From positions 2,528,001 to 2,592,000 of the forward strand of contig OZ252299.1 in assembly GCA_965250285.1 (NCBI GenBank): a stretch of 64,000 nucleotides of DNA. The letters are read 5' to 3'. Below the pieces are notes generated by a model that saw only the letters and a program-made list of their open reading frames with translations, was not told the origin of the DNA and did no database searches. A program made the translations under genes and the position numbers. Each line of letters starts with the position of its first letter. The first letter of the stretch is position 1. Shown here one piece after another: positions 4,158-47,259 of the stretch. The stretch is from Myxococcota bacterium (lineage in GTDB: Bacteria > Myxococcota_A > UBA9160 > UBA4427).

Positions 4158-4186
4158 TGGTGGAGGCGGCGGGAATCGAACCCGCG
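4158..4186 (-). repeat. ssrA: att site 1: copy of tmRNA 3' end
   Basis: Reverse complement CGCGGGTTCGATTCCCGCCGCCTCCACCA (T-arm plus acceptor with U70 and CCA); identical to 53900-53928. Confidence 0.9.
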
Positions 4187-30928: not shown

Positions 30929-33900
30929 CTATAGCTCCGGTAGGTAGTAAGCCAGGAGCTCTCGCATCAACACCTCTCCACGCCGCGCCAATCGCTCGAT
31001 GTCTGCTTCTGCCATCGGCGAGAAGTTGGTCGGGTACGTATAGACCTCGTGCCGGCGCGGCAGGTCCGGCGGAAGCCACGGCAGGCTCTCGTCGATCTGA
31101 CCAAGGTACGCGAAGGCGAATCCCGAGATGGCGCCGGTCGCAGCATGCCTATGGAGTCGGTTGCGTGTCGCATCCTGGACCTTGCGGAAGGTCGTCAGGA
31201 ACGAACGATGCATGCGCGTCGGCCACCACATCGGGAAAGAGTCCGCATCGAACAATCCGCCTCCGGCATCGCAGGAGATGATGTACTTCGGGTCAAAGAC
31301 GTTTGTGCTGACGTCCGGCGACCGGCCCGGCTCCATCGGGCCAACTCCCAGGTTCTCGAAGACGCCACCGTCGGTCAGCAGAACACGGTCGACTCCGACA
31401 TCCTTACCCCTCTTCGAGAAGCGATACTCGCGGTCAAGCGCTGGAAGGAACACCGGATAGGCAGCGGAAGCTGCAACGGCATCAGCAACAGAAGAAGACG
31501 CCGGTGCGATCGTTCCGAAGCGCCAGCATCCGGACTCTCTGCTCCCGAATCGGAAGGCTGAGCCGGTGCGAAGCTCCGTCGCATTGATCACGACGTCCAG
31601 CGAGTCTCGCACCACCTCACTTGTCTTGACCTCGCCGAACAGCGTGCGGGCCAGGGCGGTGCGAAACGCTTCGGCCCGACTGTGGGCCCGAGCCGGAGGA
31701 ACCGACCTCGGGTCTAGGAGTCCACGCTGCAATCCCGATGGCAGCATTGCCCCAAGGCCTCTGAGCATCGATGAAGGTACGTTCCGAAGCATGGCGGCTG
31801 CCGTGCGGGCCATCGAGCCTGGCGTCAACCACGCCTTCGCAATCTCGCCTACCAGCCCCTCCCTCAGCAACGACGTGACGCGAGCATCAAAGTCGGCAAA
31901 GTCCTCGCTCGAGTACGCATACATGGCGGCGATGACAGAGCCACCCGACACACTGGAGATCACCTGGAGGCGGTCGAGGAGGTCGAGATCAGCGAGGGCC
32001 CGGAGACATCCCAGGTGGAAGGCGATCGCCCGGGAACCACCCCCAGATAGCGCCAGTCCGACGTCTCTGGGCGAGGTCACATCATTCGAAATGCCCGATG
32101 TCGATGACGCATCCATCGACACGACCACCGAGTTCTGCAGTCGGCGCTCAGTGCGGAACAGATGCGCTCCCATAGTCGGGTCATCCGGACTTCCAGACAG
32201 AATCAGAAGAAGGCAGGTCCGTCGGTTCGACCCAGGGGTCGCGAGCAACTGATAGACGGCGCCTATGTCAACCTCACTCGGCTCCGCGCGGGACCGCGGG
32301 TGGGTGTGCCAGCTGCCGACACATCTCACTGACTTGCGAAACCGGCCCTCTTTCTCTGCCGCCGCCTCTTCCATTCCTTCGACGCCGCAAGTGAAGTGGA
32401 GTGCGGATGCATCGCTGTCGGGCGGTGGACCTGCGACCTCGGTCACCCAAAGCACGCCCGCCGCCTCACTCAGCTCGCCGAAGATCAGCCCTCCAGTCTC
32501 GCAATCACGCCCCGCTGTCCTCTCGGACCGGCGTGCCCATCCGCGCATCTCCCGCAGGGCTTCCGGAGAGATCCGGATTGAGAACTCGTGGCTAGGGTCA
32601 TCCAGAACCAGCTCGCTCGACCACCCGAATTCATGGAGCTCTCCTCCACCTGAGAACATCCAGCCCGCGGCAGCACTCGGCTGGTCGTGGCTGCGGAGCG
32701 CGTTGGCGATTGCGTTCATCGCACGCGCGGATAGTGACGCGAGGTCGGCATCTGAGCCGACGAACGTTGGCTCAGAGCACCCTGGTTCAGGCTGGAAACG
32801 TGCGGGGTCGCCCTCAGAGGGCCAGAAGGTGTCGCGCAGCGCGCCAAGGACGGAGGGATCCCGGCACGCAGCAATCTTCAGGCGACGCAGCAGATCCAAC
32901 GTCCCACCGCTATGGCCCGGCATGGAGAGCGTCGCAATGGCTGACGAAGCGTCAAAGCCGATCCCCAGCGAAGCAATCGGCGGACGGACTCCTTCCGAAC
33001 GCAACACCCGCTCCGCCTTGGTTCGCACCGGCTGAGATGCAGTGCAGTCGATGATGATGTCGACATCGGAGAAAGGGGATGGGTCGTCGAGCAGGTAGAG
33101 CAGGTTACTAGCCAGCGCCTCGGCCTCTAGCTGAGAGTCGACCCTGCGCAGTCTGTCCCCGAGAGCCTCTGCTTTCGGTCTTCCGATGTCGGACTCATCG
33201 AAGCACTGCCGGACAAGAATGCCCGGTACCACCGTCCCGTTGTCAATCAGGCGGAGGGTCGAGGCGCCTGCCCGAGCGATCGATTCCGCGACTCGGGATC
33301 CGATCGCGCCGCATCCCCAGATCTCGACTCTTTTGCCCCGGAACCACGACATCGGAGAGTCGGAGTCACGACGACGAGTGACCTCGGGGCGCATCTCGCG
33401 AACAGGGCACCAGCCTACTTTGGCCTCGAGCGACCACTTCGCCACTTGAGCGATTGCCGCGTCCCGCCCTTCCTCGCTGGGCTCGCCCGAGGACTTCTGC
33501 ATCTCGCGAAGCTGGTCGGCGTCTTCTCCGGACACCTCCCAAACAGCAAGATGCTGTAGAAGTGGGCCGCTTGCCTCGACTCGCCGCATCGGGGTGCCCA
33601 GAACCACGAGCAACGGCAGCCCGCGGTCAGTGCGGGCAGCAAGGGCCGCCAGCAACCACAGGAAGGTTGCCGTTTCGATTCCCTGGTCGTCGAGCTCCTT
33701 GAGGAGTTCGTTTACCGTCCCGGGGTACTCGAAGGGCAATGGCCGCGGCAACAGGATCGCGGGGGCGAATACCGCGGGCGCCCCTTCAGACGCACGGACC
33801 CACGCGGCGATCTCGGTTCTGTTCGGGAACTCTTGAAGCTCTGCGTATCCGACCCAGCCCCCTTCGCCTACGTCGGGCGTGTCCGCTCGCGGAACCACGA

Positions 33901-34348
33901 GACGCGCGGTGGATTCGTATGCAACCGGCGGATGTAGCGGCGCGTCGTCTGGGTCAAGATTGCAGACCGCCGCGTCACGAACCCACTGGTCCAGTCGGGC
34001 CACAAAGCCATACATCCCACCGTCCGGGTCCCACTCGAGTGTGCTCTGATAGAGACAAGGGTGGCGGCGCCATTGCACGTGCGGGAAGCCTGCGAACCGG
34101 TCATGGGCAACGGCGACGCGCGGGTACACGAACGGGAATTGAGGGGAGATCGCGAGGTGGAAGTGCTCCCTGGCGCGAACAGGCAAGCCCTCGGGCGCGC
34201 GCTCCAACCCATCGAAGCGGATCGAGATCTCGAACTTCAGTATCGAGCCGTCTTCGCTCGTCGACTCGGAGATCAGCTCGACACTTCCATCCGATGCTTC
34301 CGAGATCTCCTGGAGCTGCTCCCTCGCTGACGCCTGGCCATCGGTCAT
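30929..34348 (-). CDS. E2-E1(ThiF)-JAB-patatin fusion protein
   Basis: E2 FP..YP..PHV..HPC98LY; E1 G345CGAIG, LID, LVRQ, DCTA, EPGC524; JAB ETGG, H681TH..S..D; patatin SG769GG, SVS801GG, D993GG. Confidence 0.9.
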   Translation of the reverse strand: MTDGQASAREQLQEISEASDGSVELISESTSEDGSILKFEISIRFDGLERAPEGLPVRAREHFHLAISPQFPFVYPRVAVAHDRFAGFPHVQWRRHPCLYQSTLEWDPDGGMYGFVARLDQWVRDAAVCNLDPDDAPLHPPVAYESTARLVVPRADTPDVGEGGWVGYAELQEFPNRTEIAAWVRASEGAPAVFAPAILLPRPLPFEYPGTVNELLKELDDQGIETATFLWLLAALAARTDRGLPLLVVLGTPMRRVEASGPLLQHLAVWEVSGEDADQLREMQKSSGEPSEEGRDAAIAQVAKWSLEAKVGWCPVREMRPEVTRRRDSDSPMSWFRGKRVEIWGCGAIGSRVAESIARAGASTLRLIDNGTVVPGILVRQCFDESDIGRPKAEALGDRLRRVDSQLEAEALASNLLYLLDDPSPFSDVDIIIDCTASQPVRTKAERVLRSEGVRPPIASLGIGFDASSAIATLSMPGHSGGTLDLLRRLKIAACRDPSVLGALRDTFWPSEGDPARFQPEPGCSEPTFVGSDADLASLSARAMNAIANALRSHDQPSAAAGWMFSGGGELHEFGWSSELVLDDPSHEFSIRISPEALREMRGWARRSERTAGRDCETGGLIFGELSEAAGVLWVTEVAGPPPDSDASALHFTCGVEGMEEAAAEKEGRFRKSVRCVGSWHTHPRSRAEPSEVDIGAVYQLLATPGSNRRTCLLLILSGSPDDPTMGAHLFRTERRLQNSVVVSMDASSTSGISNDVTSPRDVGLALSGGGSRAIAFHLGCLRALADLDLLDRLQVISSVSGGSVIAAMYAYSSEDFADFDARVTSLLREGLVGEIAKAWLTPGSMARTAAAMLRNVPSSMLRGLGAMLPSGLQRGLLDPRSVPPARAHSRAEAFRTALARTLFGEVKTSEVVRDSLDVVINATELRTGSAFRFGSRESGCWRFGTIAPASSSVADAVAASAAYPVFLPALDREYRFSKRGKDVGVDRVLLTDGGVFENLGVGPMEPGRSPDVSTNVFDPKYIISCDAGGGLFDADSFPMWWPTRMHRSFLTTFRKVQDATRNRLHRHAATGAISGFAFAYLGQIDESLPWLPPDLPRRHEVYTYPTNFSPMAEADIERLARRGEVLMRELLAYYLPEL

Positions 34349-35544
34349 CAGCCGTACGTTACTGCGGCTCCAGGCGTCGCGTCCGAACCACGCGCCTCGG
34401 ATGCTGCGGCAGACGCCGTCTTCGCGGTCGCAGGGGTCGCGAGGGTCTTGATCGCCCCGCCCTCAAGGGTCACCACGATGGGGGTCGGATTCTCCATCGT
34501 GCACAGGAACGACTCGGTGACCGTCTCATAGCGGCGCTTTGCTTTGGCGTGCGGCGGGTTATCACCAGGCTGGTTCGACGAAGGCACCGGATTCGAGCTC
34601 GACACAATGCGATTGGGACTCTGCGAGGCAGCCGCCATCGCATCGAGAATGTGCTGCTTGAGGACCTCGTCGCCACCGTTCTCATCCTTCCAGTACATGA
34701 CGGACTTCGAACAGTGGTGCGGGGCGAGGAGGACGTTCCACGCGAGATCGTCGGGCTGACTGACGTCAAAGATGCGCTTGATCGTCGGGTACTTGAGATC
34801 ACCGAGCAGGAGAGCACGAAGCGCCTGCTGGCCATCGAAGAGGGACACCTGGAGACCGAGACTCGTCGCGTTCCGCTCGCCCGAGTCGTCGCCCTTGAAG
34901 GGGGCATGGACAAAGCCGCGGAAGGCTCCGGTCAGGTCGACGTAGTCCACAGATTCAAACTGAGTCCCAGGAACGACGATCCGGCTGCTCGGGAAGCCGT
35001 TGAATTCGGGCTCCTCGAGTAGTTCGGAGTAGCCGAAAATCCGAACCCTGTTCCCGGAGCCAGGGTCACCGCTGGCGCTGACCGTCGCTCGAACCCTGCG
35101 TTCCGCCTCCTTCTTGAAGGCGGTGGCGTCGTCGCACAGGTCCTTGTGGTACTCGCGGAAGACGCGGGGGGTGAACCAAAGCTCGCCGATGTCGACCCTC
35201 TCGAGAAGGGCCTCGAAACCGCGGCAGTGGTCCTGGTCGGGGTGCGTGAGAGCGAACGCCGCGAGGTACGGACGGCCTCCGCGTCGTGGCAGCCGGCTCG
35301 CGAGCTCGTCCACGACCGACCAGGCGTTGTCCTCGTCGCTCTCCGATTTCTCGAGGTGGTTGATATCCACCTGGATGAACGTCTCGGCATCGACGGCGAT
35401 CGTCGTGCTATCGCCGTTGCCGACGGGCCAGAAGACGAAACCGCGCGGGGGGAGTTGGAAAGTCACGATGTCCTCCTCGGAACCGGGCTCGGGGAAGGCC
35501 AGGTTCCGTTTATTGTCGTCTGGCCCTGTGTCAGCTCCGGACAC
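34348..35544 (-). CDS. ComEC/Rec2-type metallo-beta-lactamase fold protein with C-terminal Gly tail
   Basis: VGNGDS, THPDQDH, LLGD, PHHCS; Ala/Thr-rich tail ending AVTYG; TGATG coupling to the fusion gene. Confidence 0.9.
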   Translation of the reverse strand: MSGADTGPDDNKRNLAFPEPGSEEDIVTFQLPPRGFVFWPVGNGDSTTIAVDAETFIQVDINHLEKSESDEDNAWSVVDELASRLPRRGGRPYLAAFALTHPDQDHCRGFEALLERVDIGELWFTPRVFREYHKDLCDDATAFKKEAERRVRATVSASGDPGSGNRVRIFGYSELLEEPEFNGFPSSRIVVPGTQFESVDYVDLTGAFRGFVHAPFKGDDSGERNATSLGLQVSLFDGQQALRALLLGDLKYPTIKRIFDVSQPDDLAWNVLLAPHHCSKSVMYWKDENGGDEVLKQHILDAMAAASQSPNRIVSSSNPVPSSNQPGDNPPHAKAKRRYETVTESFLCTMENPTPIVVTLEGGAIKTLATPATAKTASAAASEARGSDATPGAAVTYG

Positions 35545-35658: not shown

Positions 35659-35805
35659 GTGCCTCAGAGGTGCCTCAAGCCAGAAAACAGGCTTGCAAGC
35701 TATTGTTTTTGAAAAGAAAATGGTGGAGGCGGAGGAATATACCCTGCGTCCGCTTCAATCAAATCAAGCACTTATGACGGAATCAGGTGCCTCGTAGGAG
35801 CTCGC
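35659..35805. repeat. att site 2 (degenerate tmRNA 3' end, 35721-35751) with arm repeats and IHF site
   Basis: GTGCCTCA-gag-GTGCCTCA 35659-35677; TGGTGGAGGCGGaggaatataccctGCGTCC; AATCAAGCACTTA 35762-35774; decayed arm GTGCCTCG 35787. Confidence 0.85.
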
Positions 35806-36558: not shown

Positions 36559-37833
36559 ATGACGAGCATCGACTATGAGCCCGCGTCACCCGAGGTCAAG
36601 CAGGACCCCTACCCCTTCTATGAAGCCATGCGCCGGGAGTCCCCCGTCTACCGAATCCCCAGCACGGGCTTCTACGCCGTGTCCCGCTACGACGATGTGA
36701 TGCGCGTGCTCAAGGATCCGGAGGTCTTTTCGTCCAACGGCATGCGACTCATGATGATGAGCGCCATGACGGGCGGCGTCCAGAACATGGCGCTCGACGT
36801 GGAGGACATCCGGGCCGAGCGAGAGAAGGTGGCCGAGCAGCTCGACTTCGACCCGGGGATGTTCCTCTCAGCCCAGACGGTCATCTCCTCGGATCCACCC
36901 GAGCATGGCCGGCTGCGCAGCATCGTGAACCGTGGATTCACACCCCGCCGGATCTCCGCCCTGGAACCCCGTGTGCGCGAGATCGCGCGTCAGCTTCTCG
37001 ACTCAGCCCTCGACGGAGACTCCGGCGACTTCGATCTGGTTCACGACTACTCCGTTCCGCTTCCGGTTCGGGTCATCGCCGAGCTTCTCGGTGTCGAGCC
37101 CGAACGGCGTGCCGACTTCAAGCGTTGGTCCGACACGGTCGTGTCGGGCGCGTCGGGCAGCGCCGCGACGCCGCAGGAGATGATCTCGACCTTCGGCGAG
37201 TTCACGGCGTACTTCAACGAGATCAGCGATCGCCGGCGCAAGGAGCCGGCCAACGACCTGATCAGCACCCTCGTCCAGGCAGAGGACGGAGACACGCTCA
37301 CCCCTGTCGAGGTGATCATGTTCGCCGTTCTGCTTCTCGTCGCCGGCAACGAGACCACGACGAACCTGATTGGAAACGGTGTCCAGGCGCTCCTCGCTCA
37401 TCCCGATCAGCTCGAGAAAGTCGGGGCCGACAGGACCCTGATCCCGGGGTTCGTCGAAGAGGCCCTTCGCTACGACTCCCCGGTGCAGGCCCTGTTCCGG
37501 CAGGCGAAGGACGACGTCGAGGTCGCGGGTACGAAGATCCCGAAGAACTCGATCGTGCTCCCGCTCTTCGCCTCCGCGAATCGCGACGACTCGCAGTTCA
37601 AGGATGCAGCGCGGTTCGACATCACCCGCAATCCCCAGGGCCACGTGGCGTTCGGCTTCGGGATCCACTTCTGCCTCGGCGCGTCTCTGGCGCGGCTGGA
37701 GGCGAAGGTCGCGTTCGAGGAGCTGCTGGGTCGCACGGCGCGCCTCGAGCGCCTCGAGCCCGAGACCGACTACATCGATTCCTTCCTTCTCAGGGGGCCT
37801 CGTGCCCTACCGCTCCAGTATGCGGCGGCCTGA
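36559..37833 (+). CDS. Cytochrome P450 (1)
   Basis: AGNETT, EALR, FGFGIHFCLG. Confidence 0.97.
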   Translation: MTSIDYEPASPEVKQDPYPFYEAMRRESPVYRIPSTGFYAVSRYDDVMRVLKDPEVFSSNGMRLMMMSAMTGGVQNMALDVEDIRAEREKVAEQLDFDPGMFLSAQTVISSDPPEHGRLRSIVNRGFTPRRISALEPRVREIARQLLDSALDGDSGDFDLVHDYSVPLPVRVIAELLGVEPERRADFKRWSDTVVSGASGSAATPQEMISTFGEFTAYFNEISDRRRKEPANDLISTLVQAEDGDTLTPVEVIMFAVLLLVAGNETTTNLIGNGVQALLAHPDQLEKVGADRTLIPGFVEEALRYDSPVQALFRQAKDDVEVAGTKIPKNSIVLPLFASANRDDSQFKDAARFDITRNPQGHVAFGFGIHFCLGASLARLEAKVAFEELLGRTARLERLEPETDYIDSFLLRGPRALPLQYAAA

Positions 37834-37851
37834 GCACACAGGAGACCTCCG

Positions 37852-39078
37852 ATGAGTGCGACTCCGCAAGTCCCGACCGACCCCTACCTGAGCGACGAGT
37901 TCATCTCGGATCCCGTCGGCGTCATCGACCGGATGCGCGAGGAGGATGCGGTCCATCTCATCCCCGGCTTCAATGCCTGGATGGTCACGCGCTGGAAGGA
38001 CGTGCGGGAGCTCTTCACGCACCCGAGCACCACGAACGATCGCCGTGCGTACGAAAACTACAATCTCCCACCGGAGGGGTCGGCCGCGCGTTGGTTCGCC
38101 GAGAACAGCCTCTTCGCCGTCGAGCCCGAGCGGCACGCGCGGATGCGGAATCTCGTGTCGGCAGCGCTCACGCCTCGGGCCGTCAAGCGGATGGAGGGGC
38201 AGGTTCGGGAGGTCGTCGGGCAGTTCGCGCAAAAGCTCCGCGGAAGGACGGGTGTCGTCGACGTCATGGCCGAGTTCACCGAGCCGATCCCGAACACCGT
38301 GATCGGTCGCATCTCCGGCATCCCGCAGAAGGGAGACGACGAGTATCGCTGGCGGCAGCTGGGTCGCGACTCGGTGCGCGGAATCAACCCCTTTCTCTCG
38401 CCCGAGGAGCGCAAGCGTTCGGAAGACGCGCTCGCCGAGATCTGTGACTGGGTGCGCGCGATCGCGAGCGAACGTCGTCGGCAGCCGCGAGAGGACATCA
38501 TCTCGGACCTCGTTCAGGTCACACACGAGGACGACCGGATGACGATCGACGAGATCGTTCTCGTCGTGGCCGCGCTCGTCGCAGCGGGGACCGAAACGAC
38601 GACGATCGCCAGCACGCGAGGCATCCGGGCGTTGCTCCAACACCCGGACCAGATGGAGCGGCTGCGTGCGAATCCTGAGCTCATGCCCAACGCAGTAGAC
38701 GAGCTGCTGCGTTGGGACTTCGGCTCGGTCGGCCTCCCGCGCTATGCGGCAGAGGACTTCGAGTTCCGTGGCAAGCCGATCAAGAAGGGGCAGCTCCTCA
38801 TGCTCAACATGATGGGCGCGCATCGCGATCCGAGCGTCTTTCCGAACCCGAACGCACTCGACCTCGCGCGAGATACGAAGGCACTCACGATCTTCGGTCA
38901 CGGTCCCCACTACTGCCTGGGCGCGAACCTCGCCCGGCAGGAGCTGCGCTGCATGTACGAGGCCGCCCTCGACTTCCTCCCCGAGGATGCGCGGCTTCTC
39001 GAAGACCAGATTCAGTGGACTCGCGTCGTGATGTTCACGTCGATCGACTCGCTGCCGGTGGATTTCGGCACCGCATAG
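37852..39078 (+). CDS. Cytochrome P450 (2)
   Basis: AGTETT, ELLR, FGHGPHYCLG. Confidence 0.97.
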   Translation: MSATPQVPTDPYLSDEFISDPVGVIDRMREEDAVHLIPGFNAWMVTRWKDVRELFTHPSTTNDRRAYENYNLPPEGSAARWFAENSLFAVEPERHARMRNLVSAALTPRAVKRMEGQVREVVGQFAQKLRGRTGVVDVMAEFTEPIPNTVIGRISGIPQKGDDEYRWRQLGRDSVRGINPFLSPEERKRSEDALAEICDWVRAIASERRRQPREDIISDLVQVTHEDDRMTIDEIVLVVAALVAAGTETTTIASTRGIRALLQHPDQMERLRANPELMPNAVDELLRWDFGSVGLPRYAAEDFEFRGKPIKKGQLLMLNMMGAHRDPSVFPNPNALDLARDTKALTIFGHGPHYCLGANLARQELRCMYEAALDFLPEDARLLEDQIQWTRVVMFTSIDSLPVDFGTA

Positions 39079-39122
39079 GGCGCTGAACACACGACCTGAG
39101 ATCCAGATGAGGAGAACTCTCG

Positions 39123-40406
39123 ATGGCCGAGCAGACCACTGGCTCCGGACCCTTCGGCTTCCTGCCGCGTGATCCCGAGGAGCTGCATGCCTTCCTCGCG
39201 GATCTCCGCGAGAACAAGCCGGTCCACCAGATCCCACCTGCCGGCGTCTGGGCGATCACCCGCTACGAAGACGTGGTCCACGTACTGAAGCACCACGAGC
39301 TGTTCTCTTCGGAGGCGCTCCGGACCATGGGGATGGGCATGGCGGGCATCGCGGCCGATTCGCTCGAGACCAGTCTCTCCAGCGACAACGCGGCCGTTCT
39401 CTTCCGAACGACACCGACGGTCATCACCGCGGATCCTCCCCGACATGGGCGCCTACGCAACATCGTGAACCGAGGCTTCACGCCCAGCCGGATCGAACGC
39501 GTGGCGCCACGGATCAGGGAGATCACGACGGAACTTCTCGATGACGTGGTGGCCCGAGGCGAAATGGAGCTGATGAGCGACCTCGCGGTTCCGCTGCCCG
39601 TCACCGTCATCGCCGAGCTGCTGGGCGTCGCACCCGAGCGGGGCGACGACTTCAAGCGGTGGTCGGATCTCTTCATCTCAACGCTCGCGCAAATGCCCGA
39701 CGCCGAGACCTTCAAGAAGATCGAGGCCGCGATGCAGGAGTTCGCGAAGTACTTCGATGAGGTCGTCCAGGAGCGGCGGCGACGACCGACTGACGATCTG
39801 GTGAGCACCATCGTGCACGCCGAGACCGAGGACGGCGCCCTGAGTAACGTGGAGGTTCTGGCCTTCTGCCGGCTCCTGCTCATCGCCGGAAACGAGACCA
39901 CCACAAACCTGCTCGCACGGATGATCATGACCCTGCTCGATCATCCGGATCAACTCGCGAAGCTCCGGGCTGATCTCAGCTTGCTGCCGAACGCCGTCGA
40001 GGAGACGCTTCGCTATGCGGGCGTCGTCCCGGCACTACCGCGCCTGACGACACAAAAGGTCGAGGTCGGAGGGGTGAAGATTCCCGCCGGACAGATCGTA
40101 CTCCCGTTCTTCATGGCCGCGAACCGTGATCCACGCCGCTTTCCCGACCCTGACCGATTCGACATAACGCGCAAGACCACGGGCCACCTCGCCTTCGGCT
40201 TTGGGGCGCACTTCTGCCTTGGCGCACACCTCGCGCGCCTCGAGACGCGCATCGCAATGGAGGGAGTCCTCGGGCGGCTTCCGAACTTCCGAATCGCGCG
40301 CACGAGCGAAGAGAAGCACGTGCTGACGGGGCAGGCGGAGGCCATCTACGTCGAGTTCGACGAAGGAGAGACCGACGGCGGCAGGGTTGAGGTGCCAGGT
40401 GTCTGA
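39123..40406 (+). CDS. Cytochrome P450 (3)
   Basis: AGNETT, ETLR, FGFGAHFCLG. Confidence 0.97.
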   Translation: MAEQTTGSGPFGFLPRDPEELHAFLADLRENKPVHQIPPAGVWAITRYEDVVHVLKHHELFSSEALRTMGMGMAGIAADSLETSLSSDNAAVLFRTTPTVITADPPRHGRLRNIVNRGFTPSRIERVAPRIREITTELLDDVVARGEMELMSDLAVPLPVTVIAELLGVAPERGDDFKRWSDLFISTLAQMPDAETFKKIEAAMQEFAKYFDEVVQERRRRPTDDLVSTIVHAETEDGALSNVEVLAFCRLLLIAGNETTTNLLARMIMTLLDHPDQLAKLRADLSLLPNAVEETLRYAGVVPALPRLTTQKVEVGGVKIPAGQIVLPFFMAANRDPRRFPDPDRFDITRKTTGHLAFGFGAHFCLGAHLARLETRIAMEGVLGRLPNFRIARTSEEKHVLTGQAEAIYVEFDEGETDGGRVEVPGV

Positions 40407-42009
40407 GAATGGTGACCGATACGATGCGATCGTGATCGGTGCGGGCATGGCGGGGATGTATCAGCTCCACCGCCTTCGCGAGCTGGGTCTCTCGGTGCGC
40501 GTCTTCGAAGCGGGTGCCGACGTGGGCGGGACCTGGTACTGGAACCGCTACCCCGGCGCGCGGTTCGACTCGGAAAGCTACAGCTACGGCTACTCCTTCT
40601 CGGACGAGATCCTGAGCGAGTGGGACTGGAGCGAGCACTTCTCTCCCCAGCCGGAGACCCTGCGGTACCTGAACTTCGTCGCGGACAAGCTCGACTTGCG
40701 CAGGGACATCCAGTTCGGCGCGCGAGTGACGGCAGCGACCTTCGACGATGCCGAAAGCTCCTGGCAAATCACGACCGAGGACGGCACCCACGCAGGGGCA
40801 CGCTTCCTGATCACAGCAGTCGGCCCGCTCTCGGCGCACACGCTCCCCGCCATCGAGGGCCGCGACAGCTTCGCGGGCCTGGCCTTTCACACCGCCCGCT
40901 GGCCGCATGAGCCAGTCGACTTCACAGACAAGCGTGTCGGGGTGATCGGGACCGGGGCCACCGGCGTGCAGGTGATCCAGGAGGTCGCCAAGACGGCCGG
41001 CCATCTCACGGTGTTCCAGCTTCAGCCGAACTTCTGTGCGCCTTTGCACAACAGCGCGATCGACGACGATGCCCAGACCGAGATCCGCGCGCGCTATCCG
41101 GAGATCTTCGAACAGTGCAATGCCTCGCTCGGCGGCTTTCTGCACGCCCCCGACCCCCGCTCGGCGCTCGAGGTTTCGCCCGAGGAGCGCGAGGCCTTCT
41201 GGGAGAAGCTCTACTCCGAGCCCGGATTCGGTATCTGGATGGGGAATTTCTGGGACATCCTCGTGAATGAGGAAGCCAACCGGCTTGCGAGCGAGTTCAT
41301 GGCCAGGAAGATCCGGCAGAGAGTCGAGGATCCCGAGGTCGCGGAGAAGCTGATTCCCAGGGATCACGGCTTTGGTACACGGCGGGTCCCTCTCGAGACG
41401 AACTACTACGAGGTCTACAACCAGACCAACGTCGAGCTGGTCGACCTCCGCGAGGATCCGATCGATCGGATAACGCCGTCCGGTGTGAAGACGCGCGAGG
41501 GGGAGTTCGATCTCGACATCCTGATCTATGCGACGGGCTTCGACGCGATCACCGGCGCCTTCGACCGCATCGAGATCCGCGGTGAAGCGGGAGGGACGCT
41601 CAAGGAGAAGTGGGCCGACGGCCCCCGGACCTACCTTGGCCTGCAGTCTGCGGGATTCCCGAATCTCTTGACCCTCGTCGGTCCGCACAACGCCGCCACG
41701 TTCTGCAACATCCCGCGCTGTATCGAGCAGAACGTCGAGTGGGTGACGGATCTGCTCCGCTACATGGGAGAGAACGGCCATGTGCGCGTAGCGCCGAGCG
41801 AACACGCCGAGGCCGACTGGACCAACCACGTCCACGAGGTCGCTTCGATGACGCTTCTGTCCAAGACCCCCTCGTGGTTCACCGGCGCGAACCTCAATCT
41901 TCCCGACAAGAAGCAGACTTTCCTGGCCTATGCCGGTGGCTCTCCGGCCTACAGGGCGAAGTGCGAAGAGGTCGCTGCAGGCGGCTATTCCGGCTTCGTG
42001 TTCCGGTAG
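40399..42009 (+). CDS. Type I Baeyer-Villiger monooxygenase
   Basis: GAGMAG, GGTWYWNRYPG, fingerprint FAGLAFHTARWP, GTGATG, ATGF. Confidence 0.95.
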   Translation: MSENGDRYDAIVIGAGMAGMYQLHRLRELGLSVRVFEAGADVGGTWYWNRYPGARFDSESYSYGYSFSDEILSEWDWSEHFSPQPETLRYLNFVADKLDLRRDIQFGARVTAATFDDAESSWQITTEDGTHAGARFLITAVGPLSAHTLPAIEGRDSFAGLAFHTARWPHEPVDFTDKRVGVIGTGATGVQVIQEVAKTAGHLTVFQLQPNFCAPLHNSAIDDDAQTEIRARYPEIFEQCNASLGGFLHAPDPRSALEVSPEEREAFWEKLYSEPGFGIWMGNFWDILVNEEANRLASEFMARKIRQRVEDPEVAEKLIPRDHGFGTRRVPLETNYYEVYNQTNVELVDLREDPIDRITPSGVKTREGEFDLDILIYATGFDAITGAFDRIEIRGEAGGTLKEKWADGPRTYLGLQSAGFPNLLTLVGPHNAATFCNIPRCIEQNVEWVTDLLRYMGENGHVRVAPSEHAEADWTNHVHEVASMTLLSKTPSWFTGANLNLPDKKQTFLAYAGGSPAYRAKCEEVAAGGYSGFVFR

Positions 42010-42060
42010 ACGCCACGGTGGTACAGGCCCCAGACCCGGGGCGAAACGGAGGAGAAGCAC

Positions 42061-43398
42061 TTGATCGAGTGGGCCGAGGTCGCGCGGGATGAGGGCGGCC
42101 TGCGCATCTACCGGATCGACGCGGAGTCGAGCGGGGTCCCGGGAGCGGGAACGGGTCGCCACGTGCCGAATCCGCTGGAGCTCATCCTCACGCACTTCGA
42201 CACACCGACGGCGAGGCTCCTGCAGGATGATTTCACGGGAGCCGGCGCCGCCGTAGGAGCCAGCTCGTTCTCAGTCGCCTGCCACGTGATCTCGCTACCC
42301 GGCGCCTTCGTGGTCGTGGATTCGACCTATCGGACTACGGCGGGGGAGATCTTCCCCGCCGTTCTCGAGCGCATCGCGAGAGCCGAGGGTCGTAGCCTTC
42401 ACGAGCGGCCGATTCAGGTCCTCTATACACACGCGCACTTCGACCACGCTGGCGGGCACCAGGCGGTCGAAGCCATGGGGAGTGATGTCGAAGTCATCGC
42501 ACATCCGGCAACAGCCGAACTGATGCCGCTGGTCAGCCGGCGGGAGTCCTTCCTCAAGACGAGGGCACCGTTCCTGCGTGATTGTGAGATCCGCGCCGAG
42601 GTCGACGAGCTGGCGGACCGGATTCGGGCGCACTATGTCGAGTTGGCAGAGAAGGCGGGCGTCGATCTCGAGAGCGCGCCGTGGGGCAGTGTGGATGACG
42701 GCCCGCTCCGGGTCGATCGAGAGATCGAGCCCGGTGGCGGGACGGTCGAACTGGCTGGAGGGCGTATCGAGGTCCTTCAGTTCGAGGGGCACATCCCCGG
42801 GCATCTGTGCGTACGCATCGATCGCCGACACCTCGTCACGGGAGACATGTGGCTTCCCGCAACGACGTCCTTGGTCACACCGGGATCCACGGCGTCTCAG
42901 GCGGAGATCGCCGCCGAGCGCTGCGGAGTGCTGCGTTACCTCGAATCGAGCGAGCGCTTGCTCACGCTGGAAGTCGACTCCGACATCGCGTACCCGAGTC
43001 ACGAGATCATCTACCGGAATCCGAAACGGATGGCGTTGCGCGATCTCGAGATCTTCGCTGAGCGCCTCCCGCTGATCGAAGCGGTGGTCCGTCAGCACGA
43101 AGAGGTGCCCATGCGCGCGCTCGATCTGGCTTGGGGAGGACCGGAGCGGCTGCCGATCTGGAAGGTCGAGGGGAGCGTCATGCGGCTGGTGGTGGCGCAC
43201 GACGAGGCCAGTGCATGGGTAGAGGATCTCGTGGCCCTCGGCGATCTCCGCGAGGTGGAGCCCGAGCGCTATGTGGCGACGGGTACGCGAGCGCTTGCAT
43301 TGCGGATGGAGTCCGCCCTCGAGAGTGCGAGGACGAACCACGGCCATCTCGAGTTCCGAAGCCGCGGACGGGAACCACATACGGGGGCTCATGACTAA
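42061..43398 (+). CDS. MBL-fold metallo-hydrolase
   Basis: THAHFDHAGG, GHIPGH, TGD, PSH. Confidence 0.85.
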   Translation: MIEWAEVARDEGGLRIYRIDAESSGVPGAGTGRHVPNPLELILTHFDTPTARLLQDDFTGAGAAVGASSFSVACHVISLPGAFVVVDSTYRTTAGEIFPAVLERIARAEGRSLHERPIQVLYTHAHFDHAGGHQAVEAMGSDVEVIAHPATAELMPLVSRRESFLKTRAPFLRDCEIRAEVDELADRIRAHYVELAEKAGVDLESAPWGSVDDGPLRVDREIEPGGGTVELAGGRIEVLQFEGHIPGHLCVRIDRRHLVTGDMWLPATTSLVTPGSTASQAEIAAERCGVLRYLESSERLLTLEVDSDIAYPSHEIIYRNPKRMALRDLEIFAERLPLIEAVVRQHEEVPMRALDLAWGGPERLPIWKVEGSVMRLVVAHDEASAWVEDLVALGDLREVEPERYVATGTRALALRMESALESARTNHGHLEFRSRGREPHTGAHD

Positions 43399-43454
43399 TG
43401 GCAGATGCACTCTTGACTTTGAAACCCTGCACCTCGCGATAGGAGCTACGACCC

Positions 43455-44531
43455 ATGGAGCAAACGGTCTACAGCCAGGATGAGATCCTCGCGGAGCATG
43501 ATTTCGCAGAGAAGCTGAGCCACGACGGCCGCCCGATCCACGGCGGGCTGGATTCGGGAAGCCGATACCTTCCTCCGCGCTCGCTCAACCGGATCGACGC
43601 AATCCGCGCCTGGTCGAAGCAAGTCACTGCGGCCGGTCACAAGCTCGACGTCATGGACCGCAAAGCGGTGATCGAGATGTTCGAGTTCTTCCCGACCGTC
43701 GACCAGGCGAAGCTGCTGCTGGAGAACGGCTGCGACGACGCGATGACACGCCTGCTGACCATGATCGGCATCGTGGAGGGCTTCGGAAACGATGGCATCA
43801 AGCTCATGCCGGAGCTGGACATGACGGACTACTTCGTAGAGTCGGTCGAGGGCACTTGCCTCGATCACCTACACAGGGGCCTTCTCGTCGCCCACGGCCT
43901 CGACGAAGCCGGCTCGGAGCACGAGAGCGGGCACGACGAGATGTGGTTCGCGATTCGTGATGTCGCACTCGATCGTCCGAATGTGACGGACGACATGTTC
44001 GAGAACCTTCCGATTGCGCCGCCGCCTGGATACAGCGGGAGGGCCAAGCCGGCTCCCGAGGCGCTTAAGGTGGGCGATACAGTGGAGCGGCTCTTCCCCA
44101 GCCTGGACCCGGCCCTGGAATTGACGCTACGCGGTCTCGCCCAGATCCTGCTCGTGGAGCTCGGCGCCTACAAGACGTTCGCATGGGCTCGGGAGGTGCT
44201 CGCCGATCCGAAGGCCTCGTCAGCCCCCGAGTGGGCGCCGCAGATGGTGGACTGCATCCAGGCCGACGAGGACATCCACGTCAACTATCTGGAGTGCGCT
44301 CTGGCCGAGGCGCGTGCCCGCACCTTCCTTGGCGCGGATGGCGAGAAGATCCCGGGCCCTGTGGTCATCGACCGCATCTGCGAGGCGGCCCTCGAGCGGC
44401 AGAGCGGCGAGCGCATGCAGCGCATGATGGCACACCGGTACCGCAACATCCTCGATGAGCTGGAGGGGCGGGCCGACGGTCGCCAGATCCTCCGCGAGTT
44501 CCAGGCGCTCGGCCCGGTGCCCGCGCTGTAG
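43455..44531 (+). CDS. Ferritin-like diiron-carboxylate protein
   Basis: IVE..DEAG...GH..LVE..DEDIH ligand pattern; AGGAG RBS. Confidence 0.65.
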   Translation: MEQTVYSQDEILAEHDFAEKLSHDGRPIHGGLDSGSRYLPPRSLNRIDAIRAWSKQVTAAGHKLDVMDRKAVIEMFEFFPTVDQAKLLLENGCDDAMTRLLTMIGIVEGFGNDGIKLMPELDMTDYFVESVEGTCLDHLHRGLLVAHGLDEAGSEHESGHDEMWFAIRDVALDRPNVTDDMFENLPIAPPPGYSGRAKPAPEALKVGDTVERLFPSLDPALELTLRGLAQILLVELGAYKTFAWAREVLADPKASSAPEWAPQMVDCIQADEDIHVNYLECALAEARARTFLGADGEKIPGPVVIDRICEAALERQSGERMQRMMAHRYRNILDELEGRADGRQILREFQALGPVPAL

Positions 44532-44627
44532 AAGGGAGTCTCCCAACAACGCGCCGCAGCGAGCACCTACGATCGTGCGGCCCCTGCGCGGCCGGCACGC
44601 GCCATGCCTGATATCTGGAGGAAACCC

Positions 44628-45950
44628 GTGACCGACTACCTCGACTACGACCCCTTCCGTCGCGATGTGCAGCTCGACCCCTATCCATACTACGCAGCGT
44701 TGCGAGAGCACGCTGCGGTCCATCGAGTGGAGTCGTCCGACGCCTGGGCGGTCTCGCGCTACGACGACGTTCACCACGTGCTCACGCACCCCGAGATCTT
44801 CTCTTCAGGTGCCCTGCAGACCTTTCTCGGAGGGAGCATCCTCGAGACCGTCAATCGGGGGCCGCTGCGATTCCTGTCCCATCCCAGCATGGGCCGGCTC
44901 GCACGTAGGGTCGGGAACGTGTACCGCGCGTTCGGCCGGCGCGCGCCCCCGTTCGAGTTCGTGCAGGCCTTCCTCTCGAGTCGAGCGGTGATCAGCGCCG
45001 ATCCGCCGGACCACACACGGCTACGGCACCTGGTGAATCGCGGGTTCACACCGCGACGAATCGCAGCGCTGGAGCCGCGCATTCGAGAGATTGCCCGCAA
45101 CTGCCTCGACAAGCTGGAAGGCCGCGATGAAATGGACCTCATGCGTGACTTCGCCATCCCGCTGCCCGTGACGGTCATTGCGGAGGTGCTGGGTGTGCCC
45201 GAGGACCGCTTCGGAGACTTCAAGCGCTGGTCTGATGCCGTCGTGCAAGGCGTCAGTCTGGGCGATGCAGACGCGGCACGCGCGCCGATTGGCGTCATGC
45301 TCGAGTTTGCACGATATCTCGAAGGGCTGATCGAGGAGCGTCGTGCGCATCCCGCCGATGATCTCGTGAGTGTGCTCGTCCGCGATGAGGCCGGGGGCAA
45401 GCTGGATGCCAACGAGCTGATGCTCTTCCTGATCGTGATGCTCGTGGCGGGCAACGAGACGACGACCAACCTGATCGGCAACGCGATCCACCTCCTGCTC
45501 GACCGCCCTGACGACCTCGCGGCAGTCGAGGCCGATGCGAGCCTCGTGCCGGGACTCGTAGAAGAGTCGCTCCGCTACGTGTCGCCGATCCAGATGCTGC
45601 CGCGCACCGCCCTGTGCGATACGGAGATCGCAGGAACGAAGATCCGTGAAGGCGAGAACGTATTGGTGCTCTTCGCATCCGCGAACCGCGACTCGCGGAA
45701 GTATCCCAATGGAGATGAGTTCGAGCTGCGCCGAAACCCGAAGGAGCATGTGGCCTTCGGCTTCGGGATCCACTTTTGTCTCGGCGCGTCCCTGGCTCGG
45801 CTGGAGGGCCTGGTCGCGTTCGAGGAGCTGTTCGCGCGAATGCGCAACCTGCGCCGCGCATCCGGCGAGGTGAGCTTTCTCGAGAGCGGCATCCTGCGCG
45901 GGCCCAAGACACTGCCCGTCGCCTTCGATCGTCCCCGTGCGGCGGCATGA
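44628..45950 (+). CDS. Cytochrome P450 (4)
   Basis: AGNETT, ESLR, FGFGIHFCLG; GGAGG before GTG. Confidence 0.97.
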   Translation: MTDYLDYDPFRRDVQLDPYPYYAALREHAAVHRVESSDAWAVSRYDDVHHVLTHPEIFSSGALQTFLGGSILETVNRGPLRFLSHPSMGRLARRVGNVYRAFGRRAPPFEFVQAFLSSRAVISADPPDHTRLRHLVNRGFTPRRIAALEPRIREIARNCLDKLEGRDEMDLMRDFAIPLPVTVIAEVLGVPEDRFGDFKRWSDAVVQGVSLGDADAARAPIGVMLEFARYLEGLIEERRAHPADDLVSVLVRDEAGGKLDANELMLFLIVMLVAGNETTTNLIGNAIHLLLDRPDDLAAVEADASLVPGLVEESLRYVSPIQMLPRTALCDTEIAGTKIREGENVLVLFASANRDSRKYPNGDEFELRRNPKEHVAFGFGIHFCLGASLARLEGLVAFEELFARMRNLRRASGEVSFLESGILRGPKTLPVAFDRPRAAA

Positions 45951-45999
45951 AGATCGATACTGATTGCGGCCGACCTCTAGCGCCGCGAGGAGAACGCTG

Positions 46000-47259
46000 A
46001 TGAGTGCGTCTACCACAGGACTATCGCAACCCTCTCCTGGGCCCGAAGACTTCAGCCTGCTGGCACCTGAGGTTCGCGAGAATCCCTATCCCTACTACGC
46101 CGCGCTACGACGCGAGTCGCCGATCCACCAGCTGGTCCCGGGGGCGCCGCTCTACGCGATCACACGCTACGAGGACGTTCTCCACATTCTCCATCACCCG
46201 GAGATCTTCTCGTCTTCGGCGTTGCAGGCAGCGCTTCAGGGGGGCGGGATCGGCATCGGCCCGAACAGTGGCGCGCTCGCCGACCACCGGCTGCTTCGCG
46301 CGAAGATGATGATCGCGACCAATCCGCCCGACCACGGGAGGCTGCGCCGGCTCGTCAACCGCGGCTTTACGCCGCGCCGCATCGCAGACCTCGAGCCGCG
46401 GATTCGGGAGTTGGCGACGCGCTTCCTCGACTCGGCCATCGACGATGGTGAGCTCGAGCTCGTCCGCGGCCTCTCGATCCCCCTGCCGGTGACGGTCATC
46501 GCCGAGATGCTGGGCGTCGAGGCGGACCGGACAGAGCAGTTCAAGGCGTGGTCGGACGCCTTCGTGATCGGCCTCTCGGGCGCAGCGGGCGAGTACACGA
46601 AAGACGACATTCGCAGCGCGGCCGACGAGATGGCCGACTACATCGAGCGGATTGCGGCCGAGCGACGAGCGAGTCCGCGGGACGACCTCATCAGCGTCCT
46701 CGTGCAGGCCGAGGGCGGCGACGCGCTATCGACCGGCGAGGTGATGGCATTCGTGGTGCTGCTTCTGATTGCGGGGAACGAGACCACGACCAACCTGATC
46801 GGTAACGGAGTCAAGGCACTCCTCGCCCATCCCGAACAGCTCGAGCGAGTGCGCGCGAATCCCGATTTGGTGCCCGCGCTGGTCGAGGAGGTGGTTCGCT
46901 ACGACTCGCCGATCCAGGCACTGCCGAGATCGACCGATGCCGACGCCGACCTTCCGAGCGGGACGGTGCCCGCAGGCTCGACGATGCTGGTGTTCTTCGC
47001 ATCGGCGAACCACGACGAGAGCCAGTTCCCGCAAGCCGAGCACTTCGATGTCGGGCGACCCGCGCCCGGACACGTCGCCTTCGGGCACGGCATCCACTAC
47101 TGCCTGGGTGCGTCGCTCGCGCGTCTCGAGGGGAAGGTCGCCTTCGAGACGCTCCTCCAGCGTTGCCGCAAGATGGAGCTGGCTGCGGATTCGATCCCGA
47201 TGCTCGACTCGCTCGTGCTGCGGGGCCCGAAGTCCCTTCGACTCCGGGTCGAGGAGTGA
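46000..47259 (+). CDS. Cytochrome P450 (5)
   Basis: AGNETT, EVVR, FGHGIHYCLG. Confidence 0.97.
   Translation: MSASTTGLSQPSPGPEDFSLLAPEVRENPYPYYAALRRESPIHQLVPGAPLYAITRYEDVLHILHHPEIFSSSALQAALQGGGIGIGPNSGALADHRLLRAKMMIATNPPDHGRLRRLVNRGFTPRRIADLEPRIRELATRFLDSAIDDGELELVRGLSIPLPVTVIAEMLGVEADRTEQFKAWSDAFVIGLSGAAGEYTKDDIRSAADEMADYIERIAAERRASPRDDLISVLVQAEGGDALSTGEVMAFVVLLLIAGNETTTNLIGNGVKALLAHPEQLERVRANPDLVPALVEEVVRYDSPIQALPRSTDADADLPSGTVPAGSTMLVFFASANHDESQFPQAEHFDVGRPAPGHVAFGHGIHYCLGASLARLEGKVAFETLLQRCRKMELAADSIPMLDSLVLRGPKSLRLRVEE

Follow-up and report, generated by a model that had tools for sequence, protein, structure and literature searches.

Conserved Thr-Tyr-Gly tail of an MBL-fold hydrolase as the likely ligation handle of a patatin-fused 6A-MBL anti-phage operon

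Results

Genes and features at the locus

The window, a stretch of 64,000 nt from contig OZ252299.1 of a Myxococcota bacterium, carries on its minus strand two adjoining genes, one encoding an MBL-fold hydrolase and the other a fusion protein with E2-like, E1, JAB and patatin-like domains (Table 1). The last base of the MBL stop codon is the A of the fusion-gene ATG, giving an overlap at 34348. The probable start of the MBL gene is the GTG at 35466, which is preceded by GAGGAGG and gives a protein of 372 aa; a longer ORF of 398 aa from 35544 was dropped in its favor. The database record for the protein is also 372 aa long. Scored against NCBIfam NF058524, the MBL protein reached 276.8 bits (cut-off, 220); no Pfam family was assigned to it, and its PADLOC matches were to MBL models and weak only. 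Predicted metal-binding motifs were found at H75-x-D77-x-D79-H80, G222-D223 and H250-H251, with residues that were invariant or at least 90% conserved in an alignment of 68 diverse sequences. The AlphaFold2 model built from 68 sequences had a mean pLDDT of 91.8, its confident part extending to about residue 342, and its best fold match, the ComEC beta-lactamase-like domain (9ic4; E 8.3e-13; TM 0.75 by target, 18% identity), tentatively suggests a ComEC-like nuclease or phosphodiesterase.

Table 1. Coordinates of the operon, its domains and the neighboring repeat in the window.
Feature	Position	Strand	Basis
E2-linker-E1-JAB-patatin fusion, 1139 aa	30929..34348	-	NF058523; PF14457, PF00899, PF14464, PF01734
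Patatin-like phospholipase domain, residues 765-1139; GGGxR, S801 in SVSGG, D993-G-G	30932..32056	-	Pfam Patatin E 3.2e-18
JAB peptidase domain, residues 583-734; E617, H681, H683, S691, D694	32147..32602	-	PADLOC JAB E 1e-18
E1 adenylation domain, ~residues 326-575; GCGAIG loop, D369, R380, K392, predicted catalytic C524	32624..33373	-	Pfam ThiF E 5.2e-18
E2-like domain, residues 10-147; H90, predicted catalytic C98	33908..34321	-	Pfam Prok-E2_A E 6.6e-19
6A-MBL MBL-fold hydrolase	34348..35466	-	372 aa from GTG 35466; NCBIfam NF058524
Terminal Thr-Tyr-Gly	34351..34359	-	TYG in 118/119 best-matching relatives, terminal in 10
C-terminal tail, residues 344-372 (29 quoted residues)	34351..34437	-	pLDDT 41-58 and column conservation in 119 relatives
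Degenerate tmRNA 3' end copy	35721..35732		12-base match shared with 4158 and 53900

The fusion protein scored 342.4 bits against NF058523 (cut-off, 320), with the model matched to residues 54-716, and the Pfam domains lay in the order Prok-E2_A (10-147), ThiF (339-443), Prok-JAB (614-702) and then Patatin. Cap2 (7to3) was both its closest solved sequence match (E 6.8e-8) and its closest solved fold (E 1.9e-20), the fusion model having a mean pLDDT of 72.8 and a pTM of 0.54. Throughout 46 full-length fusion relatives, H90, C98, the GCGAIG loop, D369, R380, K392 and C524 of the E2 and E1 domains, E617, H681, H683, S691 and D694 of JAB, and the GGGxR loop, S801 and D993-G-G of patatin were invariant; the catalytic roles of these residues are predicted by motif and analogy. 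The E1 domain resembles ThiF/MoeB. In the patatin domain the nucleophile motif is SVSGG, a variant of the textbook GxSxG; PF01734 matched above its cut-off, and the Gly-rich loop, the nucleophile Ser and the DGG Asp were all found. PF01734 was likewise detected on all of the best 120 fusion matches (997 matches among 7997 candidates). The JAB-patatin linker contained no aromatic-Gly site hinting at self-cleavage.

The locus thus combines a specialized MBL, the E2-E1-JAB order on one chain, adjacent genes and intact E2, E1 and JAB sites, which are the features of type 6a. NF058524 and NF058523 are NCBIfam's two models for the 6A-MBL anti-phage system, and an MBL adjoining an E2-E1-JAB gene is the two-gene operon type 6a in the portion of Iyer, Burroughs and Aravind (2006) covered here (PMC1779556). 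By sequence, the gene pair belongs to the 6A-MBL anti-phage system and forms an operon of type 6a (Iyer 2006). According to the source passages covered, the 6A-MBL name comes from work in P. aeruginosa (van den Berg et al., 2024), and the system also appears among jumbo-phage defenses (bioRxiv 10.1101/2025.09.30.679545) and in a review (PMC13276650). Neither a nucleotide cyclase gene nor a gene for a ubiquitin-like protein is present in the two-gene operon, and the two flanking ORFs have no Pfam or PADLOC family.

A 12-base match to the tmRNA 3' end occurs four times in the window against 0.44 expected; the copies at 4158 and 53900 match the tmRNA end of this genome over 29 bases, that at 4158 exactly. 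The copy beside the operon likely marks the right boundary of an integrated element carrying it, the operon lying at the right end of the ~31.5 kb between the copies at 4158 and 35721, a stretch that also carries TrwC, TrwB, RadC, ParA and an integrase. The window gave no tRNA, tmRNA or Rfam match. The MBL was present in 2 of the 401 genomes of a phylum sample, this genome included, and in 0 of 25 genomes of the same family; an exact-pattern search of the genome contigs, the sensitivity of which is limited by the exact patterns, returned one locus for the MBL and none for the fusion. The boundary repeats and the patchy MBL distribution fit mobile defense cargo.

Conservation of the MBL tail

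The minus-strand MBL ORF that ends at 34348 has the C-terminal sequence TLATPATAKTASAAASEARGSDATPGAAVTYG followed by the stop, or, in a second quotation, TPATAKTASAAASEARGSDATPGAAVTYG and then the stop. Its final encoded residues are ...PGAAVTYG-stop, with the Gly372 codon at 34351-34353 and the stop (TGA) at 34348-34350. AlphaFold2 gave residues 341-372 block pLDDT values of 56, 58, 54 and 41 and only one short helix, at 351-358, so modeled; the tail is predicted to be flexible. The first-pass annotation had described this end as a low-complexity linker with Gly as its last residue. A terminal Gly is indeed encoded here, but the tail is not merely low-complexity: in 119 close relatives, namely the best 120 of 2338 matches (7995 candidates scored) minus the protein's own record, the pattern A-x-x-A-x-x-x-A-R-G-x4-P is conserved, with A351, A354, A358, G360 and P365 kept in 97-100%. 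TYG was found within the last 25 residues of 118 of these 119 relatives, the remaining one having TYC, and T370, Y371 and G372 were kept in 100%, 100% and 99%, respectively. Conservation averaged 66% in tail columns 335-369 versus 85% in the core, and dropped to 22-55% in the tail columns neighboring TYG.

A more diverse set was assembled from 150 listed representatives of 50%-identity clusters among 576 matches, of which 67 near-full-length ones (340-460 aa) were kept. [YFH]G occurred in the last 12 residues of 52 of the 67, versus 5.4% of internal 12-residue windows, and 23 terminated exactly at that [YFH]G; the 15 representatives without it near the end comprised 6 ending in [FY]A, 2 with another Gly and the rest with neither. 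In the 68-sequence alignment, with a mean column identity of 30%, G372 was at least 90% conserved. By these sequence counts, the tail motif is more than chance. The C-terminal [YF]G for which the annotation had proposed to search homologues is conserved in its Gly (99% of 119) but lies at the very end in only 10 of 119 and 23 of 67, so that genes ending directly on this Gly codon are in the minority.

Association of the tail with the E1 ligase

Closed MBL ORFs in fetched loci were scored with profiles built for this analysis. Excluded from the count were the loci of this genome, 6 identical-tail rows, 11 contig-edge rows and 3 strong MBL matches without a detected E1, one of which was cut by an insertion sequence and two of which were pieces of one split gene. 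There remained 77 unique strong MBL matches directly upstream of an E2/E1/JAB ORF, and 75 of them ended in aromatic-Gly or RAG, 69 with aromatic-Gly in the last 10 residues and 6 with RAG plus 0-2 residues; the other two were one with RAG plus 3 residues and one truncated frame. Aromatic-Gly was found in none of 19 distant MBL-fold neighbors without a downstream E1, of which 4 ended in Gly or Ala and 15 otherwise. This supports but does not prove a tie of the aromatic-Gly tail to E1 adjacency, and its weight is limited because the 19 controls are other subfamilies and not 6A MBLs minus E1, that is, the contrast is not lineage-matched.

Residues beyond the conserved Gly

The number of residues encoded after the TYG Gly in the 118 TYG-bearing close relatives was 0 (10 relatives), 2 (80), 3 (14), 4 (11), 7 (2) or 14 (1). 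Because 108 of the 118 thus encode 2-14 extra residues, their Gly could not be adenylated before these are removed; therefore JAB likely also trims a pro-form. In the covered text on BilA, one residue past the Gly blocks adenylation, and the proposal is that the peptidase takes it off (PMC10557695). JAB is accordingly, as judged from the overhangs, a likely maturation enzyme in most of the 6A-MBL family. The copy in the window is encoded ready-trimmed, like about one in twelve close relatives, and its JAB site is nonetheless intact.

Variation of the third slot

A metagenome scan with a profile of this clade confirmed 407 stretches, of which the best 80 were kept; 7 near-duplicates, 30 without a JAB in the available DNA and 1 without downstream room were dropped, leaving 42 informative loci. 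Since the query profile came from the clade, the counts cover this clade only. Patatin was fused in 17 of the 42 and encoded by the next gene in 16, and 9 loci carried something else; patatin was hence present in 33 of the 42 and a separate gene in 16 of the 33. The other loci included a fused calcineurin-like phosphoesterase (L017, PF00149), two membrane-protein-like families judged by eye from hydrophobic stretches (L016 and L045; L044 and L050), a SIR2-Argonaute-associated gene (L024), a patatin gene upstream on the opposite strand (L023), other ORFs (L080) and none (L042). Several 6A operons, L042 and L090-L092, have no third gene downstream. The membrane families had no PADLOC, Pfam or NCBIfam family and correspond to unnamed Atlas clusters; they had been considered as CBASS 4TM effectors, but no family of that kind came from the three collections, so this was not supported. 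They also follow tail-less MBLs without a nearby E1 (L103, L106 and L108), and L099 is an E1/E2/JAB operon of another kind, which includes a 57-aa peptide ending in GG-EY and in which the same patatin family comes after an MBL lacking the tail. The patatin matched CBASS effector models only weakly, and no annotated cyclase lay beside the seven homologue loci examined. The operon was present in 279 plasmid records, six of which were examined, and among 12 plasmid loci examined, patatin or membrane-protein homologues were found next to RAG-ended MBL operons, next to E1-less MBLs lacking the tail, and in the one differing E1/E2/JAB operon. In the covered type 6a description (PMC1779556) the word 'patatin' occurs 0 times; among the papers listed by literature searches, none describes a patatin-bearing 6A operon.

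Discussion

Proposed mechanism

The Thr-Tyr-Gly tail is quite probably a substrate handle: through it the fused E2-E1 would ligate the whole MBL to a target amine, and JAB would reverse the link or trim the tail, as sequence and analogy to Cap2 together argue. In the covered part of the Cap2 work, the disordered C-terminus of the cyclase is seen as an adenylate within the E1 site, and defense is lost with G436E (bioRxiv 10.1101/2022.03.31.486616). By the same chemistry, the E1 would adenylate Gly372, the thioester would pass from C524 to C98 of the E2, the whole MBL would be ligated from C98 onto an amine of host or phage origin, and JAB would reverse the MBL-target link. In most relatives, JAB may have to cut off a few residues before the Gly is exposed, as the overhangs suggest, while the copy here, being ready-trimmed, would use JAB for removal only. 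More tentatively, ligation may set the activity or location of the MBL, and the fused patatin may be a swappable killing module that damages membranes once the system fires. Firing of the patatin might go through an MBL product or through ligation of the MBL onto the patatin, two unlikely refinements of this mechanism, or be independent of them. The annotation's proposal that the MBL tail is the equivalent of ubiquitin agrees with the conserved aromatic-Gly, the predicted-flexible linker, the E1 neighbor and an operon free of a ubiquitin-like gene, and MBL ligation is predicted in this clade. In that proposal the MBL might also be ligated to the fusion itself, and the MBL and the patatin would be two potential effectors. 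Against the mechanism stand the close relative with TYC, the 15 of 67 representatives without [YFH]G near the end and, for the patatin part, its SVSGG in place of GxSxG.

Ledvina et al. (Nature, 2023) are said to have reported a conserved C-terminal motif and JAB cleavage in MBL operons. No mention of MBL was found in the portion of the corresponding preprint covered (bioRxiv 10.1101/2022.03.31.486616). Conjugation of the MBL is the model given for 'MBL pathways' in the Discussion of PMC11601596, as far as that text was covered; because a conjugated MBL is already in print, the earlier inference equals an existing model, and the tail-as-handle idea is not new.

Alternative readings

A tentative alternative, unlikely on balance and compatible with ligation, puts the MBL in the cyclase slot: it would make or destroy a signal, a small nucleotide or a lipid headgroup, controlling an exchangeable effector (patatin, phosphoesterase or membrane protein), with E2-E1-JAB being regulatory as in type II CBASS. 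The variation of the third slot, among the 42 loci drawn from the best 80 of 407, speaks for it, together with the recurrence of the same membrane families after tail-less, E1-less MBLs, that of the same patatin family in a different E1/E2/JAB operon, and the classing of MBL with 'signaling enzymes' in the covered part of PMC11601596. The best fold match of the MBL is nevertheless a ComEC nuclease-type domain, the MBL of another defense system is AVAST-associated and required with a protease and a helicase in the text covered (PMC13069673), several 6A operons lack a downstream third gene, and the membrane families match no CBASS effector model, the patatin one weakly. Extended to the family, it would make 6A-MBL CBASS-like, with the MBL replacing the cyclase and its signal gating interchangeable effectors, with or without the ligase, armed by JAB trimming and tail ligation; we regard this wider proposal as plainly unlikely.

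The remaining readings concern the fate of the tail. A refinement of ligation, fairly improbable, has the MBL conjugated onto a lysine of its own third component, the patatin (in cis where fused), activating it or restraining it until JAB acts. Many genomes maintain the four-domain fusion (PF01734 on the best 120 of 997), with patatin beside the E2, and L017 carries a phosphoesterase in the same fused position; yet patatin cannot be the general target, because it is encoded separately at 16 of 33 patatin loci and missing from other operons. Moreover, the CBASS self-conjugation to Cap2 that was observed in an assay was on a tag (bioRxiv 10.1101/2022.03.31.486616), and the natural CBASS target in B. 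cereus is the host protein PspA (PMC11153139), both as given in the covered text. That the tail only docks in the E1 site or is adenylated, thereby assembling or inhibiting a complex without being passed on to any target, appears quite improbable: the blocked end encoded in 108 of 118 TYG-bearing close relatives and the conserved tail helix, which could serve docking, are offset by the JAB metal site and the two cysteines predicted for transfer, all invariant in 46 sequences, and by the exact ending at Gly of this copy and 10 close relatives. It is very improbable that the tail is a sulfur carrier bearing a ThiS/MoaD-like thiocarboxylate for biosynthesis or modification, as the ThiF/MoeB-like E1 domain might suggest, since the ThiF and MoeB equivalog cut-offs were missed and the 6A-MBL cut-off was passed, no rhodanese domain was found, an E2 with a conserved Cys is fused, and the context is that of a mobile element. 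A chance low-complexity end without any role, in keeping with the Ala/Thr-rich composition and the low model confidence, is scarcely credible and is refuted by the conservation counts, the motif being conserved far above its flanks and background.

Significance

For the ligation model, the tail result confirms in a further member what has been published. Since most relatives carry an overhang, JAB is predicted to be required to arm the system as well as to switch it off. A JAB-dead trap should work directly in the ready-trimmed copy but block conjugation where the overhang is present, so that the ready-trimmed and overhang forms make a clean paired experiment. Patatin offers a simple read-out for 6A-MBL, namely membrane damage. 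If it were true that the MBL makes a signal for swappable effectors, this would add a new type of enzyme producing immune messengers, and the new messenger would be most simply sought with the patatin fusion.

Comparison with known systems

The closest structure to the MBL model is the ComEC beta-lactamase-like domain (9ic4), but the MBL here stands alone and has a Gly-ended tail. With Bil and Bub, as covered in their sources, the operon shares a JAB peptidase, which in those systems has been proposed or demonstrated to free the reactive Gly of a pre-protein; it differs in that the modifier there is a beta-grasp ubiquitin-like protein and here a 372-aa enzyme, in which the model and fold search found an MBL fold and a low-confidence tail and no beta-grasp, and in that Bil has separate E1 and E2, whereas both are fused here. 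Type II CBASS Cap2/Cap3 (7to3) and type II Pycsar are alike in the fused E2-E1, the non-ubiquitin enzyme substrate, its disordered small-residue tail and the JAB peptidase, patatin being a CBASS effector too in the covered text (PMC13069673); here, in contrast, there is no cyclase gene, JAB is fused, and the substrate is an MBL-fold hydrolase. The described 6A-MBL system is matched by an MBL followed by E2-E1-JAB on one chain, with both proteins above the curated cut-offs, but here JAB is followed on the same chain by a patatin of ~375 aa that the NCBIfam model does not include, and neither a third component nor a pro-form overhang appears in the covered parts of the 2006 description (PMC1779556) and later texts. 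What is added to the known system is modest: a clade that is armed with patatin and swaps its effectors, and the pro-form overhang.

The probable integrated island holding the operon

Across the genomic segment surrounding the window, the tmRNA 3′-end occurs in five exact copies of 29 bases each, one of them the gene's own, and in one additional degenerate copy. They are arranged in line ahead of the tmRNA gene, and this row is likely a tandem array of integrated islands. In addition to the operon pairing the MBL-fold hydrolase with the E2-E1-JAB-patatin fusion (6A operon), its island encodes TrwC, TrwB, RadC, ParA, an integrase, DUF5131 and a replication-type HTH gene. To the right of the island boundary, five long ORFs resembling cytochrome P450s in their motifs lie in a row with one likely flavin monooxygenase ORF. 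Among the homologous loci, several plasmid copies of the operon were disrupted (L003, L004 and L005): the patatin spans two frames or does not start in frame, or the ligase is split.

Variation of the MBL tail and the associated genes

In one MBL branch (L098, L100, L102, L104 and L091-L093), the aromatic-Gly tail is replaced by a P-R-A-G end, and these genes are likewise paired with patatin or membrane-protein genes; this branch may represent a second tail specificity class. A divergent WYL-domain gene was found upstream of the MBL at four loci (L007, L098, L105 and L109); at three of them, the gene for the membrane protein comes after the WYL gene and not after the ligase. The patatin itself can be substituted, as a calcineurin-like phosphoesterase is fused to E2-E1-JAB in L017, and also in L019, L020 and L022.

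At L103, L106 and L108, an MBL-fold gene lacking the tail forms a two-gene module with the gene for a likely membrane protein, and the neighbourhood annotation contained no E1; these unnamed proteins belong to families that also occur downstream of 6A operons. In the Runella plasmid cluster (L107), an MBL with a QRG end precedes a SEC-C gene, after which come a gene for a membrane protein and another MBL. E1 is absent from its annotation, and the SEC-C gene product has an N-terminus that appeared E2-like by eye but gave no E2 match in the Pfam search; L107 is possibly an E2-only version.

Features and their locations
Feature	Location	Remark
tmRNA 3′-end copies, genomic segment	G000:C1:2527693-2605799	
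tmRNA 3′-end copies and probable island, window	4158-35732 and 53900	
P450-like/likely monooxygenase run, window	36559-47259	
Disrupted plasmid operons	L003:8373-9561; L004:8670-9851; L005:6290-8823	
Phosphoesterase fusion	L017:7131-10625	
Two-gene MBL modules	L103:3799-5657; L106:4203-5465; L108:4061-5714	
Runella gene cluster	L107:3257-6752	plasmid NC_015694.1
Mesorhizobium operon	L099:1755-6661	plasmid NZ_CP080523.1; type differs from 6A operon

The Mesorhizobium plasmid operon (L099) comprises a 57-aa peptide terminating in GG-EY, an E2-like gene, a Phd-like gene, ThiF, JAB, a tail-less MBL and a patatin of the same family as in 6A operons. Here, the Gly handle may be carried by the separate small peptide.
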